A DNA stretch of 64,000 bases from assembly GCA_037200965.1 (NCBI GenBank), contig JBBCGK010000001.1, forward strand, positions 864,001-928,000. Direction: 5' to 3'. Position 1 is the first letter of the stretch; each line of letters begins with the position of its first letter. This DNA comes from a bacterium (lineage in GTDB: Bacteria > Patescibacteriota > Minisyncoccia > Phycocordibacterales > Phycocordibacteraceae). The translations under genes and the position numbers were made by a program. The notes beneath the pieces were generated by a model. That model was given only the letters and a program-made list of their open reading frames with translations. It had not been told where the DNA came from and did not search any database. Shown piece by piece: positions 51,127 to 56,627 of the stretch.

Positions 51127-51193
51127 GACGGGCTCCTGTATATCCGTCCTCACACAGCACTCGCGCCATGCGCGGGTGCTGTATACTTTTTAT

Positions 51194-54100
51194 ATGCTCA
51201 AGCGGCTCGAAATCGCCGGGTTCAAATCGTTCGCACGGAAGACCGTGCTCGATTTCTCGTCCTCGGTGACGTCGATCGTGGGGCCGAATGGATCTGGGAA
51301 GTGCGTGACGGGCGATACGCTCCTTGCGCGCCGGACGGCTTCGGGGGAAGCGGAAGACGTCGCGATCAAAGACATCCGTCGCGGCGACGAGGTACTCGCG
51401 CTTGACGAGGCGACGGGCGCTTTCGTGAGCGCCCGCGTGAACGCGCTCCTCGATTCGGGCACCAAAGACGTGTGTGAGCTTGTCACGGAAAGCGGCAAGC
51501 GCATTCGTACGACCGCGGAGCACCCTTATCTCGCCGCTCCGGAGGCCCGGCCAGTTCCCGAGCGTCCGCGCATCGGCGTGTTTATTGATAACTCGAATCT
51601 CTATCATGGGGCGCGAAAGGCCGGGTGGCAGATCGATTTTGGCAAGCTCCGCGCGCTGCTTGAAGCAAGCGCCGACCTTCGCATCATGCGCTATCACGTC
51701 GCGGTTCCGGAAGCCGGGGATCCCGCGCATGAAGCCGCGCGCAAGCATCTGCGGGCGGTCGCCCCGTACGTGACGGTGCTCGAAAAGCCGCTCAAGTATA
51801 TTGCCGGAAGCAACGGATCGGTCGTAAAGAAGGGAGATATCGACATCGACCTCGCCCTGGATGTCGTGCGGCATCTGCCGCTTCTCGACGTCGCGATAAT
51901 CGTGAGCGGGGACAGCGACTATCTGGGGCTTGAGCAGTACGTGCAGCGGCAAGGGAAAGCGGCCCTATTCCTCTCATTCAAGCGGTCGATGGCGTGGGAG
52001 TTGCGCTTGAAGCCGCATATCTTTGCGGAGCGCATCCGCCCGTGGATCGAGCGCAGAGGAACGCAAAACCCCGAGCTTTCGCTCGGGGCAGTGTTGGTAG
52101 CGCCAATTATACAGGCATCGCTCAAGCGCGCAAGCCCCGGGCGCGAGACCCGTGTGGATACTATCGGTTCATGGACTCGCGTCATGCATCTTGCTATCGG
52201 TTCGCGCATCGCGACGCTCTCTGCCTCCGGAGCGCTCACGTTTGAAGCAGTTGCGTCGATATCCGTTCTTCCCGCTGAACGGGTATATGACATTGAGGTG
52301 GAAGGAGTTCATAACTTCGTGGGAAACGGTATCGTCGCGCACAACAGCAACGTTGCCGAAGCTTTCCGCTTCGCGCTCGGGGAACAGTCGATGAAGTCGA
52401 TGCGCGGGAAACGAAGCGAAGACCTCATCTTTTCGGGCTCGCACACCGCACAGCGCTCAAACCGTGCCGCGGTCGCGGTCGTTTTCGATAATTCCCGCAA
52501 GCAATTCAAGCTCGACTTTAACGAGGTGGTGATCGAGCGCGCGGTATTTCGCGACGGGACGAGCGAATACTCGATCAACGGGTCGAAAGCGCGCCTTCGC
52601 GACATCCAGGAGCTTCTTGCAGGCGCCAATATCGGCGAGACCGGGCACCACATCATCTCCCAGGGCGAGGCCGATCGGATACTCGCGGCTTCAAGCGCCG
52701 ACCGGCGCGAAATGCTTGAGGAAGCGCTCGGGCTCAAGATTTTCGAATTCAAGAAGCAGGAGAGCGAGAAGAAACTCCAGAAGACCGAGGAGAATATCGG
52801 ACAGGTGGAGGCGCTCCGGAGGGAACTCGCGCCGCACTTGAAGTTCCTCGGGAAGCAGGTCGAGAAGCTCGAACGCGCGGAGGAAATGCGGCGCGAGCTC
52901 GGAGCCGCGGCGAGGACGTACCTCGCGATCGAGGATGCCTATCTTCGGGAAGAAAAGAAGCGTGCCGAAAGCGCGAAAGTCTCCGCGGCGGAGCGCCTTG
53001 CGAAAGCGTCCGCGGAACTTGCCGCGGTCACCGACCTCACGGCAAGCGACAGCGAAGCCCTGAAGCGCTTCGAAGCCGTACGGCAGTCGGAAGCTCTTGC
53101 CGAGCGGATTACCTCCTCGCGGGCCGAACTTGCGCGCGAGCTCGGGAAGACGGAAGGTGCGCTTGAGGGAGCAAAAAGGCGAAGCGCCGCAGTCGCCCGC
53201 GACCCGTACGCGAAGATACCGCGGGAAGACCTGACGGCTCTTCGGGACGAGGTTGAGCGGCAGGCCGAAGGCGCGGGAGAAGGTGTCGAGTCGCTGCGCG
53301 CCGCACTCGCCGCGATACGCTCGGCAACGCGCGCTTTCTTCGAGCGCTTCGCGGTTTCGGGTGCCGCGTACCTTGCGGAGGAGGAGCGCGAGACGTTCGC
53401 GCTTGAGGAAGAGCAGAAAAGGCTCGTCGCGAAAGACGCGGAGCTCGCTGCCGAGCTTGAAAAAGCGCGGGCGGCGCTTGCCCGAGCCCGCGAAGAAGCC
53501 CGCGCCCGCGAAGAGGCGGGGCGCGAAAGCCAGCACCGCACGCTGCAGGTCGCGGAGGCAAAGGCTTCCGCGGAGGCGGAGACGGAACGGTTCGGCGCGC
53601 GCCTTCGCGAGCTTGCCTTCCTTGCCGAAGAGCTCCAGAGGGACACGGCCGAAGTACTCGCGCTTGCGGGTGCCGAGGCCGTCTCGTACGCGCCCCTGTC
53701 GGAGCTTCCGCGGGAAGAGCGCCGGGCGCAGGAAGACCGCAAGCGCGCGCTTGAGCGCCTCAAGATACGGCTTGAGGAAGCGGGCGGCGGCGGGGAACAA
53801 ATACGCAGCGAATACAAGGAGGTCTCGGAGCGAGAGAGTTTCCTTGCGCGGGAGCTTGAGGATCTTGCGAAGTCGGCCGCAGGGCTTCGGGAACTCATAA
53901 CCGAGCTCGATACGGAACTCGGCAAGAGTTTCGCGGAGGGGCTTCAGAAGGTTAACGCGTCGTTCGGGGAATTCTTCGCGCTCATGTTCGGGGGCGGAAG
54001 CGCCCGGCTTGTGCTTGAAGAGCCCGAAGACGATGAAGAGGAAGACGAGGAACGCGAAACAAGCACGCCACGCAGGGAAATGCGTCCGGGGATCGAGATA

Positions 54101-54439
54101 TCGGTTGCCCTCCCGAAAAAGCGCGTGCAGTCGCTCATGCAGCTTTCAGGCGGCGAGCGGGCGCTCACGTCGATCGCGCTCATCTTTGCCATGAGCCAGG
54201 TGAATCCGCCGCCGTTTTTGATACTTGACGAGACGGACGCGGCCTTGGACGAGGCCAACAGCCGCCGCTACGGCGACATGATCGAGAACCTCTCGAAGAA
54301 ATCCCAGCTTATCGTCATCACGCATAACCGCGAGACCATGAGCAGGGCGGGCATCCTCTACGGCGTGACAATGTCGGGCGACGGCGTCTCGAAGCTCCTT
54401 TCGGTCAAATTCGACGAGGCGGTTGCGGTGGCGAAGTAA
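51194..54439 (+). CDS. smc: SMC-like chromosome segregation ATPase (hinge-less short form), interrupted in-frame by an intein
   Basis: N-terminus MLKRLEIAGFKSF...GPNGSGK | intein | SNVAEAFRFALGE...; long coiled coil; C-terminal LSGGERALTSIALIFA...LILDETDAALD; no hinge domain found. Position rpmF-nusB-rnc-smc mirrors conserved synteny. Confidence 0.75.
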   Translation: MLKRLEIAGFKSFARKTVLDFSSSVTSIVGPNGSGKCVTGDTLLARRTASGEAEDVAIKDIRRGDEVLALDEATGAFVSARVNALLDSGTKDVCELVTESGKRIRTTAEHPYLAAPEARPVPERPRIGVFIDNSNLYHGARKAGWQIDFGKLRALLEASADLRIMRYHVAVPEAGDPAHEAARKHLRAVAPYVTVLEKPLKYIAGSNGSVVKKGDIDIDLALDVVRHLPLLDVAIIVSGDSDYLGLEQYVQRQGKAALFLSFKRSMAWELRLKPHIFAERIRPWIERRGTQNPELSLGAVLVAPIIQASLKRASPGRETRVDTIGSWTRVMHLAIGSRIATLSASGALTFEAVASISVLPAERVYDIEVEGVHNFVGNGIVAHNSNVAEAFRFALGEQSMKSMRGKRSEDLIFSGSHTAQRSNRAAVAVVFDNSRKQFKLDFNEVVIERAVFRDGTSEYSINGSKARLRDIQELLAGANIGETGHHIISQGEADRILAASSADRREMLEEALGLKIFEFKKQESEKKLQKTEENIGQVEALRRELAPHLKFLGKQVEKLERAEEMRRELGAAARTYLAIEDAYLREEKKRAESAKVSAAERLAKASAELAAVTDLTASDSEALKRFEAVRQSEALAERITSSRAELARELGKTEGALEGAKRRSAAVARDPYAKIPREDLTALRDEVERQAEGAGEGVESLRAALAAIRSATRAFFERFAVSGAAYLAEEERETFALEEEQKRLVAKDAELAAELEKARAALARAREEARAREEAGRESQHRTLQVAEAKASAEAETERFGARLRELAFLAEELQRDTAEVLALAGAEAVSYAPLSELPREERRAQEDRKRALERLKIRLEEAGGGGEQIRSEYKEVSERESFLARELEDLAKSAAGLRELITELDTELGKSFAEGLQKVNASFGEFFALMFGGGSARLVLEEPEDDEEEDEERETSTPRREMRPGIEISVALPKKRVQSLMQLSGGERALTSIALIFAMSQVNPPPFLILDETDAALDEANSRRYGDMIENLSKKSQLIVITHNRETMSRAGILYGVTMSGDGVSKLLSVKFDEAVAVAK
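51302..52345 (+). other. Intein (348 aa) in the SMC Walker-A P-loop with an NYN/PIN-like internal domain
   Basis: Block A CVTGDTLL right after GPNGSGK; block B TTAEHPYL; blocks F/G VYDIEVEGVHNFVGNGIVAHN followed by +1 Ser. Internal IGVFIDNSNLYHGARKAGWQIDFGKL...KKGDIDIDLALDVV...DVAIIVSGDSDYLGLEQYVQRQGKAALF matches NYN/LabA-like nuclease. Confidence 0.7.
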
Positions 54440-54450
54440 TCGTCTTCTAA

Positions 54451-55332
54451 TCAACACCTTGGCACCACCTCCTTGAGTACTTGTGCCGGGGTCAGGAGAT
54501 TCAGGCCGAAATGGTGCCGCTCCCGGTTGTACCAGGGGATGTATTTCTTCAGAGCCGCATTGAACGCTTCCGGACTTCTGCGCGCATGGTCGAGGCACTC
54601 CTCCTGAAGCGTGCGGTTGAATCGCTCGATATGCGCATTGTCGTTGGGTTTCCCGATGCGGGAATACCGGTGCTTCCTCCGGATGCGCTCGACGAACCAC
54701 GCCCCGAACTCGGGACCATGGTCGCTCTGGAGCATTTCGAAGCGGAAGGACGCTCTCCGCTGCGCCTCCTCGACGAAGCGCACGGCGGTCGCGGCATCCA
54801 TGCGCGCATAGGTCTTCGCGTACGCGGTGCGGGAATGCACGTCGATGAGGGTGAAGGTATACATCCGCTTCTTCAAATCGAGCATGGTGTGAATGGTGTC
54901 GATCTGGACGAGGGAACCGGGTTTCTCCGGCAGGGGGCGGTCGACCTGTGGGTGGTATCGCTTGTACGGGCTCCTCTTCTTGAGGAGGCCCATGCGGTCA
55001 AGCGTTCGCTTGATGGTGGAGAGTGAAATCACCACCCCTTCCTCCTCCAGTATGCGCTGAATGACTTCCGCGCTTCGCTTCGACTTGAGCCGGGTATGGA
55101 AGATCTTCCAGCGGAGTTCGTCTGAGAGCTGCCGGGGATGGCGCTTCGGACGCGACGAGCGCGTCGGTATCGGGTGGTATCCGATGCGTTCGGCCCTTCG
55201 CACCCATTTCATGACGGCGGTGTGATGGTACCCGAGATGCCGCCCGATCTTGCGCGCGCTCCAGCCTTGGCGGAAGAGATCCGCCGCTTCGCGGCGGATG
55301 CGGGGCATACGGGGGTTGGTGGTGTATGGCAT
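54451..55332 (-). CDS. DDE transposase/integrase (rve superfamily, IS481-like)
   Basis: N-terminal HTH (WSARKIGRHLGYHHTAVMKWVRR), QIDTIH, LQSDHGPEF, GKPNDNAHIERFNRTLQEE; start set at MPYTT (alternative 55368 lies outside the right IR). Confidence 0.65.
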   Translation of the reverse strand: MPYTTNPRMPRIRREAADLFRQGWSARKIGRHLGYHHTAVMKWVRRAERIGYHPIPTRSSRPKRHPRQLSDELRWKIFHTRLKSKRSAEVIQRILEEEGVVISLSTIKRTLDRMGLLKKRSPYKRYHPQVDRPLPEKPGSLVQIDTIHTMLDLKKRMYTFTLIDVHSRTAYAKTYARMDAATAVRFVEEAQRRASFRFEMLQSDHGPEFGAWFVERIRRKHRYSRIGKPNDNAHIERFNRTLQEECLDHARRSPEAFNAALKKYIPWYNRERHHFGLNLLTPAQVLKEVVPRC

Positions 55333-55363
55333 GCGACTTGGCTTAGTGGTGCCAAGGTATTGA
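54451..55363 (-). mobile_element. IS element (IS481/rve-integrase type) with 18-bp terminal inverted repeats
   Basis: TCAACACCTTGGCACCAC (54451-54468) versus reverse complement of 55346-55363 TCAATACCTTGGCACCAC (1 mismatch); encloses a DDE transposase; lies 11 bp after the smc stop. Confidence 0.6.
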
Positions 55364-55439
55364 ACCATTACGAGTAATTTGACACGTTTCCTCTTATAGA
55401 GTATTGTGCGCATAACGCATAGACGAAAAGGAGATTCGA

Positions 55440-55811
55440 ATGCGTAGCACATTCAAAGCGATAGTGGCAGCCGCGCTCATGCTTGCGCCTGTTGCTGCCG
55501 GGGCGGAGCCGGATTTCGCATATAACGAGAGAAGCCCGAGCGAGAAATGGCGAGACGAACACATCACCTTCGCCTACTTCGGGCGGGAAATCAAAGGCAC
55601 CGACTGGCTCGTCATCGGCCTCCATCCCGGAGACCGGAAGGTAACCGTCTCGCACCGGCATAAGATCTATCGCGACTGGGGCTATGCGGAAGTGTTTTCG
55701 CTATCAGTAGGCGACTCAATCTTCCTCGAGCCGTCTACTGCATATCCATTTGGTCAAAAGGCGAAGCTCGTAGAGTTCGATGGCTACACCAGCATGTTCT
55801 GGATCCATTGA
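55440..55811 (+). CDS. Small secreted hypothetical protein
   Basis: Signal peptide MRSTFKAIVAAALMLAPVAAGA. Confidence 0.35.
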   Translation: MRSTFKAIVAAALMLAPVAAGAEPDFAYNERSPSEKWRDEHITFAYFGREIKGTDWLVIGLHPGDRKVTVSHRHKIYRDWGYAEVFSLSVGDSIFLEPSTAYPFGQKAKLVEFDGYTSMFWIH

Positions 55812-55859
55812 GTTTCACCCCGTGAAGGGAGGTGCCCGGCACAGAAGGCCGGGCACTTT

Positions 55860-56105
55860 TCATTTTGCGAGGCGGTCTCTTTCCTCGCGCTGCAGGCGGA
55901 AACGCTCCTTGCAGCTTTCGCAGCCTTCCGGTCCCTGCATCCCGAATATATGTCCGTACGCTTCTTCGAGCGCTGTTTCAAGAATGTCGCGTGGAAACTC
56001 GTCGCAGCACATAACGGTAGCGATCAGTATGCCCATATCGGGCTTAAGTTCCGGATGGGATTCGGCAAACGCTACGCGTCCAAGACGCCTGTCTTCCGGT
56101 GTCAT
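55860..56105 (-). CDS. Small hypothetical protein
   Basis: 81-aa ORF, Cys-containing (CCDEF, CESC); weak support. Confidence 0.25.
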   Translation of the reverse strand: MTPEDRRLGRVAFAESHPELKPDMGILIATVMCCDEFPRDILETALEEAYGHIFGMQGPEGCESCKERFRLQREERDRLAK

Positions 56106-56207
56106 ATTGTATTTCTCCTTCAGTTCCTTACTCTATAACGCCGACAAAGAGACCTAAGATGTCATGTCGTTCATCGTTCCAACAGGAGCGCATGTTATAC
56201 TTCCTCC

Positions 56208-56423
56208 ATGCTTACGGCCGTATACAAGAAAGTCAGGAGCGGATACGTTGCCTGGATCGAGGAGGTGCCTGGCGTGCTGACGCAGGGAAAGTCGCGCGTC
56301 GAGGCGCGCGCGAATCTTGCTGATGCGCTTCGTGAATTCATCGCGGCGCGGCGTGACGCTACACGACGAAGCTCCGTACGTGGAAGCGCTCCCCTCAAGC
56401 GCGAGCGCATGGCGCTCGCATAG
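56208..56423 (+). CDS. hicB: HicB-family antitoxin
   Basis: AVYKKVRSGYVAWIEEVPGVLTQGKSRVEARANLADALREFI matches the HicB/UPF0150 N-terminal fold. Confidence 0.55.
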   Translation: MLTAVYKKVRSGYVAWIEEVPGVLTQGKSRVEARANLADALREFIAARRDATRRSSVRGSAPLKRERMALA

Positions 56424-56432
56424 CTTTCCCCG

Positions 56433-56627
56433 ATGAAGCGCCGGGACCTGGAGCGGCATCTTTATGCGCAAGGTTGCCGTCTTGTACGGGAGGGCGCGAA
56501 GCATTCCGTATTTGAGAATCCTCCGCTTGGCGCGATGGCGACGGTACCGCGGCACGCCGAAGTCGACCCGTATCTCGCGCGAAAAATCTGCAAGGAGCTC
56601 GGCATTAAGGCACCACAAGGGCGTTAA
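56433..56627 (+). CDS. hicA: HicA-family mRNA interferase toxin
   Basis: LERHLYAQGCRLVREGAKHSVFENP...ATVPRHAEVDPYLARKICKELGI matches HicA (YcfA-like, conserved GSH/H). Confidence 0.55.
   Translation: MKRRDLERHLYAQGCRLVREGAKHSVFENPPLGAMATVPRHAEVDPYLARKICKELGIKAPQGR

Follow-up and report, generated by a model that had tools for sequence, protein, structure and literature searches.

Introduction

Inteins that harbour homing endonucleases do so essentially with LAGLIDADG or HNH domains; canonical examples such as PI-SceI, PI-PfuI and PI-PkoII are of the LAGLIDADG type, and the HNH type is rarer. One conserved site holds all intein endonuclease domains (PMC6801210). Six structural families of homing endonucleases are recognised, and the NYN fold is not among them (PMC3384342). 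P-loops are a documented intein hotspot, at which SMC proteins are not among the top hosts surveyed and the inteins are mini-inteins or of the LAGLIDADG type (PMC4760082). In fractured genes, split inteins have a free-standing endonuclease gene between their halves (Dassa et al. 2009, PMC2677866). Here we describe an intein from a 64,000-nucleotide stretch of a bacterial genome, hereafter the window (GTDB lineage Patescibacteriota, Minisyncoccia, Phycocordibacterales, Phycocordibacteraceae; assembly GCA_037200965.1, contig JBBCGK010000001.1, positions 864,001 to 928,000 of the forward strand), which splits the Walker A motif (P-loop) of an SMC-like ATPase and carries an NYN nuclease domain in the endonuclease slot.

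Results

An intein with an NYN domain splits the Walker A motif of an SMC-like ATPase

A sequence-only reading of the window by a model had proposed a 348-residue in-frame intein at positions 51302-52345, inserted at the P-loop lysine-serine junction and carrying an NYN-like domain. The insert indeed lies within a single uninterrupted open reading frame (ORF; 51176..54439, plus strand, 1087 codons), and its translation, CVTGDTLL...TTAEH...IGVFIDNSNLYHGARKAGWQIDFGKL...KKGDIDIDLALDVV...IIVSGDSDYLGLEQYV...VHNFVGNGIVAHN, is exactly as quoted there. It is flanked by GPNGSGK and SNVAEAFRFALGE, the C-extein begins SNVAEAFRF, and the split falls between the Walker A lysine and serine, a placement that agrees with the hotspot survey (PMC4760082). 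All splicing residues can be read from the sequence: Cys1, Thr70 and His74 of T70-T-A-E-H74, His347-Asn348 and Ser+1. Excising the 348 residues restores the Walker A motif and its flanks, amino-acid identical to those of the closest intein-free homologue (P0026).

Profile searches support both parts of the element. Pfam Intein_splicing matches the insert with 61.3 bits (cutoff 35.8), NCBIfam intein_Cterm with 36.8 bits (cutoff 15.6) and NCBIfam intein_Nterm with 24.2 bits, just below its cutoff of 24.5. The Pfam NYN profile (PF01936) matches residues 90-235 with 60.7 bits (cutoff 24.2), while LAGLIDADG, HNH and GIY-YIG give no match at E<=1 in Pfam or NCBIfam. Sequences in the Protein Data Bank (PDB) match in the same pattern: residues 1-79 and 287-348 are covered by DnaB mini-inteins, residues 87-220 by the NYN protein 2qip. 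Judged by their scores, the intein and NYN matches are far beyond chance, and the earlier assignment of the middle region to NYN rather than to LAGLIDADG or HNH stands. The domain belongs to none of the six recognised homing endonuclease families (LAGLIDADG, HNH, His-Cys box, GIY-YIG, PD-(D/E)xK, EDxHD); it is an NYN domain by its profile match above the curated threshold, its PIN-like alpha/beta fold and its acidic metal-binding residues.

An AlphaFold2 model built on an alignment of 16 relatives (A1) is a confident two-domain structure (mean pLDDT, the per-residue confidence score, 86), in which both Hint halves are confidently modelled and the low-confidence stretches are two linkers only, residues 81-85 and 278-288. 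In sequence alignment with the NpuDnaB mini-intein, the ~208-residue insert enters the Hint fold at residue 80 of the latter, which lies between blocks B and F. Of the aligned copies, all full-length ones borne by inteins (16/16) and nearly all free-standing ones keep seven active-site residues (D96, N99, D181, D187, S202, D204 and D206), which are conserved across 40+ homologues overall; in a wider sample, 36/40 NYN inteins passed strict motif checks. The NYN module is thus predicted to be a catalytically intact Mg-dependent NYN/PIN-like nuclease in the usual position of a homing endonuclease.

With its Hint/intein splicing fold, its splicing residues and its precise in-frame insertion into a gene that has intein-free orthologues, the insert that splits Walker A is a class-1 intein, and its endonuclease slot holds an intact NYN nuclease domain. 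We infer with high confidence that it splices, because the ATPase would otherwise lack a P-loop and because three lineages keep the arrangement in intact genes. Evidence against an assembly artefact comes from L047 and P0243 (below), independent contigs or proteins of other organisms that show this architecture at the corresponding site. Within the window, tblastn found no second NYN or intein copy, and no GNVGIGT-repeat protein of the kind described below is present. The features are collected in Table 1.

Table 1. Features of the intein, its host gene and the adjoining region, in window coordinates.
Feature	Position	Strand	Basis or remark
SMC-like ATPase precursor gene	51194..54439	+	SMC_N 2.8e-64; TIGR02168 513 bits; ORF list; rnc-smc synteny with L001
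N-extein end, Walker A GPNGSGK	51281..51301	+	Lys is extein residue -1
Complete intein, 348 aa	51302..52345	+	Cys1 ... His347-Asn348
N-terminal Hint half	51302..51541	+	intein aa 1-80
Block A CVTGDT	51302-51319	+	
Block B TTAEH	51509-51523	+	
NYN (PIN-like) nuclease module with C-terminal helical tail	51569..52132	+	intein aa 90-277
Active-site motif FIDNSN	51581-51598	+	D96, N99
Active-site motif KKGDIDIDLALD	51827-51862	+	D181, D187
Active-site motif SGDSD	51905-51919	+	S202, D204, D206
Subfamily signature MAWELR	51989-52006	+	
C-terminal Hint half	52166..52345	+	intein aa 289-348; NCBIfam and PDB sequence matches
Block F VYDIEVEGVHNF	52283-52318	+	
Block G GNGIVAHN	52322-52345	+	
Ser+1, C-extein nucleophile	52346..52348	+	also the Walker A Ser of GK[ST]
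Extein C-terminal ATPase head motifs	54143..54238	+	SMC_N match to residue 1072
Signature LSGGE	54143-54157	+	
Walker B FLILDETD	54215-54238	+	
DDE (rve) transposase gene	54451-55452	-	
123-aa ORF	within 54451-56627		no match
HicB-like/HicA toxin-antitoxin pair	56208-56627		

Two intein lineages occupy the SMC-like P-loop

Intein-free alleles, a survey of which had been suggested along with the original proposal, were found throughout the closest homologues: the best 120 of >6,900 SMC-like homologues (67-84% identical) all lack the insert. The closest allele, P0026 (84% amino acid identity), lies on a syntenic, intein-free 114-kb contig (L001), in which the DNA on either side of the junction is identical to the window flanks at 52/60 and 53/60 positions and the encoded amino acids are identical. 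The empty site there reads ...GGGCCAAATGGCTCGGGTAAG^AGCAACGTAGCTGAGGCATTC..., with GGTAAG^AGCAAC at the junction (here and below a caret marks the point of insertion). A 942-residue homologue, P0029, was considered as a second intein-bearing allele and rejected; its extra length is an internal duplication, probably an assembly artefact, and no intein is present in it.

Occupied alleles were sought by scanning metagenome contigs for the junction His-Asn^Ser-Asn-[Val/Ile]-x-Glu-Ala-Phe-Arg-Phe, which matched eight contigs. Six of these (L048-L051, L053 and L054), from other Patescibacteria, contain inteins of 552-563 aa with a LAGLIDADG_3 domain at exactly the same Walker A K^S site, and L052 contains a partial copy of the L050 intein. 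The remaining contig, L047, has a 341-aa NYN-intein at the same SMC site, and an exhaustive search of representatives added a third SMC-like NYN-intein, P0243, with the junctions GPNGSGK^CVTGDT...ILHN^SNVAEGF. The SMC-like P-loop is evidently a recurrent target of at least two intein lineages. These lineages, LAGLIDADG_3 and NYN, are unrelated and thus compete for the SMC Walker A site.

The intein belongs to a family housed in giant repeat proteins

Database searches with the intein returned further NYN-plus-Hint proteins, all from Patescibacteria, and a scan of species-representative genomes gave 39 loci. Among them are 15 intact full-length NYN-inteins, all in giant proteins of ~1,000-3,700 aa rich in GNVGIGTTSP repeats, with junctions of the form ...(Q/H/L)^CVTGDT...AHN^T. 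The window intein is therefore not a one-off: it is a member of a sizeable family in Patescibacteria that usually resides in giant repeat proteins and has repeatedly colonised a rare second host, SMC.

In a sample of 154 representative proteins, 94 carry 108 complete inteins of this Hint family. The insert is NYN in 40, another folded domain in 13, and low-complexity or other in the rest, apart from 8 mini-inteins (143-225 aa); one of these, P0229, retains the tail that follows the NYN domain and has lost the core. Two or three inteins occur in 11 proteins of the sample, some of them at repeated sites with identical flanks, such as the three in P0146, each at QLLSIAGH^TYLTGGLG. Some sister inteins (P0018-type) have an RNase H-like insert in the same slot as NYN; this insert was identified by fold comparison alone, and a profile search against PDB sequences found nothing for it. 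Inserts also differ within single giant proteins: P0146, P0148, P0150, P0162, P0188 and others (1,000-6,000 aa) have two to three inteins per protein, with NYN, RNase H-like, low-complexity or no inserts.

The Hint halves of the window intein show 39-58% (N half) and 43-74% (C half) identity to their counterparts in the surface-protein NYN-inteins, scoring 49-96 bits, whereas against the LAGLIDADG SMC inteins they reach 20-37 bits only. On this comparison we rejected a domain swap as the origin of the window intein, in which NYN would have entered a LAGLIDADG intein already resident in SMC. Identity among the three SMC NYN-inteins is only 30-33%, while the L047 intein shares 53% identity with P0182, a surface-protein intein, and the window intein 42-49% with several inteins of such proteins. 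Since the L047 NYN is only 24% identical to the window NYN, the two represent different NYN subtypes. In the simplest reading of these relationships, the SMC P-loop would have received whole NYN-inteins from the giant-protein pool on more than one occasion. A DNA target common to the SMC and surface-protein sites was also sought, but we claim none, as only ~19-21/42 positions fit a loose consensus and the surface sites vary.

The NYN module also occurs outside contiguous inteins

The insert (KPR/KPK-x-G-V-F-I-D ... MAWELR ... L-S-S) is homologous over its full length to proteins of ~180-240 aa. We found ~20 free-standing NYN genes with no intein halves within 6 kb, at least 6 of which lie directly downstream of giant ORFs with GNVGIGT repeats. 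In two tandem arrangements of adjacent NYN-like ORFs (L031:1705-2990 and L040:449-1731), one ORF is close to the window NYN and the other is divergent (27-34% identity).

An NYN gene also stands inside fractured intein loci, L004 (Kaiserbacteria, JAPLWI010000011.1, 1-4973) and similarly L021 (JAZDHA010000038.1). At these loci an ORF with the N-terminal intein half (IntN; ...AQ^CVVGDT...HPYLVRERATLS and a stop) lies upstream and an ORF with the C-terminal half (IntC; ...VYDIEVEGTHNFVGDDIFAHN^TYV...) downstream, with the NYN gene between. The full order is N-extein and IntN, a 48-aa ORF, the NYN gene, a 68-aa ORF, a PemK toxin gene, a gene for a 432-aa zinc-ribbon/PD-(D/E)xK-like protein (a label that rests on a sub-threshold Pfam match), a 159-aa ORF, and finally IntC with the C-extein, a surface Ig-like protein. 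Four further database ORFs start with IntC (P0019, P0020, P0024 and P0025).

A form without Hint halves occurs in leucyl-tRNA synthetase (LeuRS) of two Microgenomates genomes (L039:3531-6770 and L042:2768-4786), where the NYN module is inserted in frame right after the conserved RDW..RQRYWG.PIP motif. Four LeuRS proteins in the databases carry the module (P0291-P0294), and the closest LeuRS relatives (~880 aa, 75-78% identical over the aligned parts) are without it. The L042 copy has an active-site change, D206H.

Host gene and neighbourhood

The host ORF is open from a GTG at 51176, and ATG 51194 (MLKRLE...) is the likelier start, in agreement with homologue starts by comparison with P0026; the precursor is thus 1081-1087 aa long and the spliced product 733-739 aa. 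The protein has an SMC_N ATPase head with Walker A, signature and Walker B motifs, and the C-terminal head motifs show that it is otherwise intact. TIGR02168 reaches 513 bits, under the equivalog cutoff of 567, and Pfam finds no SMC_hinge match in the protein. We therefore call it 'SMC-like', given these two results and a spliced length of only 733-739 aa. It belongs to a family of ~735 aa with no detectable hinge and >6,900 homologues in Patescibacteria, so that the host label of the sequence-only reading holds for the ATPase head and the gene order and needs qualifying for the missing hinge and the sub-cutoff score. The window and L001 share the gene order RNase HII, NusB-NUDIX, RNase III, SMC-like and RNase R; the classical rnc-smc order is retained despite the hinge-less product. 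No second smc copy was found within the window.

Three extra features lie between the SMC-like and RNase R genes of the window (54451-56627; Table 1, last three rows). The same two genes are only ~24 bp apart in L001, which identifies this segment as an insertion specific to the genome of the window. Three 333-aa ORFs were considered as copies of an insertion sequence and rejected as unrelated (~30% nucleotide identity).

Discussion

A DNA-cutting nuclease that moves the intein, or an RNase that it carries

We propose that translation of the SMC-like gene would give a precursor in which the class-1 intein interrupts the Walker A loop. Cys1 would begin an N-S acyl shift, the thioester would be attacked by Ser+1, which is the Walker A serine, and Asn348 would cyclise with the assistance of His347 as the exteins are joined. 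Splicing would restore GPNGSGK-S and yield a working ATPase of ~735 aa and a free 348-aa intein. We infer these steps from a full set of catalytic residues in a Hint fold and from the intactness of the host gene. The NYN module would then nick or cut the DNA of intein-less alleles, and recombinational repair from the occupied allele would copy the element in. The copy in the window would be a whole NYN-intein from the giant-repeat-protein family of Patescibacteria that moved into the SMC P-loop.

The sequence-only reading had offered a presumed homing nuclease and a domesticated RNase as alternatives. That the NYN module acts on DNA and serves the mobility of the element is, in our estimate, about as likely as not. 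The features that point this way are those of a homing endonuclease: the domain is nested canonically between blocks B and F, its presence is sporadic (0/120 closest SMC-like alleles), and its hosts include SMC, giant repeat proteins and LeuRS. The proposal draws on the position in the Hint fold, the sporadic occupancy and the repeated colonisation of a site that is also used by classical homing inteins; on multi-copy repeated sites in one gene, mini-intein decay products and a second nuclease fold in the slot; and on the module also existing free-standing, in fractured loci and as in-frame insertions without Hint halves, with the most conserved motif of the host gene as the site each time. 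Together, these features, which include the LAGLIDADG inteins at the SMC site and the RNase H-like sister inserts, shift the balance towards a mobility nuclease. More broadly, and more tentatively, NYN/PIN-like and sister-slot RNase H-like modules may be unrecognised families of homing-type DNA endonucleases in Patescibacteria, which would drive the spread of inteins, fractured loci, free-standing genes and Hint-less in-frame insertions at the best-conserved host motifs, namely the SMC P-loop, the catalytic core of LeuRS and the repeats of giant surface proteins.

Several points weigh against a DNA-cutting role. The near-universal retention of NYN catalytic residues is no less consistent with selection for a cellular function than with selfish homing. 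The surface-protein insertion sites are poorly conserved in DNA and the SMC site resembles them weakly, so that no long conserved recognition sequence is evident. The composition of the intein (GC 0.61, GC at third codon positions 0.70) matches that of the extein (0.63 and 0.755), and shows no sign of recent arrival. To our knowledge, all biochemically characterised NYN enzymes are RNases (Regnase-1, MARF1, KHNYN, PRORP), and we know of no NYN protein with site-specific cleavage of double-stranded DNA; the literature found on NYN enzymes all concerns RNA cleavage. The intein could accordingly splice and release its NYN domain as an RNase cargo, which once excised would cut RNA of the cell or of invaders, whether in regulation, in defence or addiction, or as an RNase gated by splicing, while the element spreads passively through recombination after DNA uptake or with aid from other nucleases. 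Besides the retained catalytic residues and the poorly conserved target DNA, such a role would suit a weak PADLOC match to a 'LabA-like NYN nuclease' model (7.6e-8), the PemK/MazF-type RNase toxin that adjoins the NYN gene in L004, and the RNA-binding nature of LeuRS, the host of the Hint-less insertion. We nevertheless regard this reading, the chief rival, as rather unlikely. An unspecific RNase inside the essential LeuRS, or freed with each SMC molecule, should do harm, and most loci have no antitoxin nearby; the PADLOC match is only weak and PHROGs gives no match for the intein. RNase cargo also leaves unexplained the exact placement in the Hint endonuclease slot, the sporadic occupancy among close relatives, and the occurrence of free-standing, fractured, intein-borne and in-frame forms at conserved motifs (the P-loop, RDW..RQRYWG.PIP of LeuRS, the GNVGIGTT repeats).

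Two further explanations deny the NYN domain a nuclease role or the intein its splicing. If the intein were old and fixed, NYN might no longer be a nuclease and serve only as a structural brace between the two Hint subdomains, as proposed for some endonuclease domains or loops of thermophilic inteins. The Hint fold can gain stability from endonuclease domains or loops in this position (PMC6801210), the composition of the intein matches the host, and sister inteins tolerate low-complexity linkers or an empty slot. Set against this, a metal-binding site would not be conserved in a brace, and none of the seven active-site residues is lost here or in the full-length intein copies (16/16 intact), whose NYN parts are only 24-48% identical; moreover, an element absent from all 120 closest alleles is not fixed. 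We consider a pure brace improbable. Least probable of all, with a chance that we judge to be very small, is an insert that does not work as an intein, whether it is a permanently retained domain by which the ATPase is inactivated or remodelled, part of a pseudogene or the product of chimeric assembly. The Hint-less module of LeuRS does show that NYN can be a permanent in-frame insertion, but here the Walker A lysine and serine are separated, and a working ATPase requires that the insert be taken out. No break interrupts the 1087-codon ORF, every splicing residue and the C-terminal ATPase motifs are in place, both Hint halves are confidently modelled, two other organisms have the same architecture at the same site, and the window retains the housekeeping synteny and has no second smc copy to take over.

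Either role of the NYN module, DNA-cutting or RNA-cutting, would be new biology. Earlier additions to the homing endonucleases yielded both evolutionary insight and gene-targeting reagents, and the NYN and sister RNase H-like slots would add folds to that list if the domains cut DNA. If RNA is what NYN cuts, we would have the first known case of an RNase set free by the splicing of an intein, and protein splicing of an SMC-like ATPase would be coupled to RNA cleavage. The data show in either case that the Patescibacteria (candidate phyla radiation, CPR) hold a large and apparently undescribed pool of inteins in giant surface proteins, which has repeatedly seeded housekeeping genes.

Comparison with known systems

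The sequence-only reading knew of no earlier NYN-type intein, and in the literature searched, with subscription journals outside its coverage, no paper pairs 'intein' with 'NYN domain'. Where papers contain both 'intein' and 'NYN', the subject is Cas9 PAM strings or otherwise unrelated; no paper found on inteins and Patescibacteria describes these elements, and the available part of a polymorphic toxin paper (PMC3482391) mentions neither NYN nor inteins. Some such sequences are public and auto-annotated as 'NYN domain-containing protein', and the architecture is visible in databases. The NYN-intein architecture thus appears to be undescribed in the searchable literature.

Like canonical endonuclease-containing inteins, the window intein nests a nuclease domain between Hint blocks B and F, sits in frame at a highly conserved motif of a housekeeping protein, shows sporadic occupancy and has mini-intein decay products among its relatives. 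Unlike them, its nested domain is NYN/PIN-like (PF01936), for which DNA cleavage is a proposal only. It resembles the P-loop inteins of MCM/CDC21-1, DnaB site b, RFC and RadA in lying inside Walker A and in using the Ser/Thr of GK[ST] as the +1 nucleophile, and differs from them in its host, a hinge-less SMC-like ATPase of Patescibacteria. The fractured loci L004 and L021 match the known fractured genes in encoding N-extein and IntN, a separate nuclease ORF (here NYN), and IntC and C-extein; their middle gene, NYN, is not of the family described there (PMC2677866), the Kaiserbacteria loci add PemK, the PD-(D/E)xK-like protein and other ORFs, and the window intein is itself contiguous, not split.

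The nested domain shares its fold and its Asp/Asn/Ser set with LabA-like and other NYN proteins (2qip, VPA0982; MARF1, Regnase-1, KHNYN, PRORP), which, unlike the domain of the window, are stand-alone or fused to RNA-binding domains and RNA-cleaving, none being reported inside a Hint domain. Compared with the bacterial intein-like (BIL) domains of variable surface proteins, the elements described here are distinct in that their termini are those of full class-1 inteins (C1...HN^T/S), that they contain nuclease inserts and that housekeeping genes are among the genes they invade.

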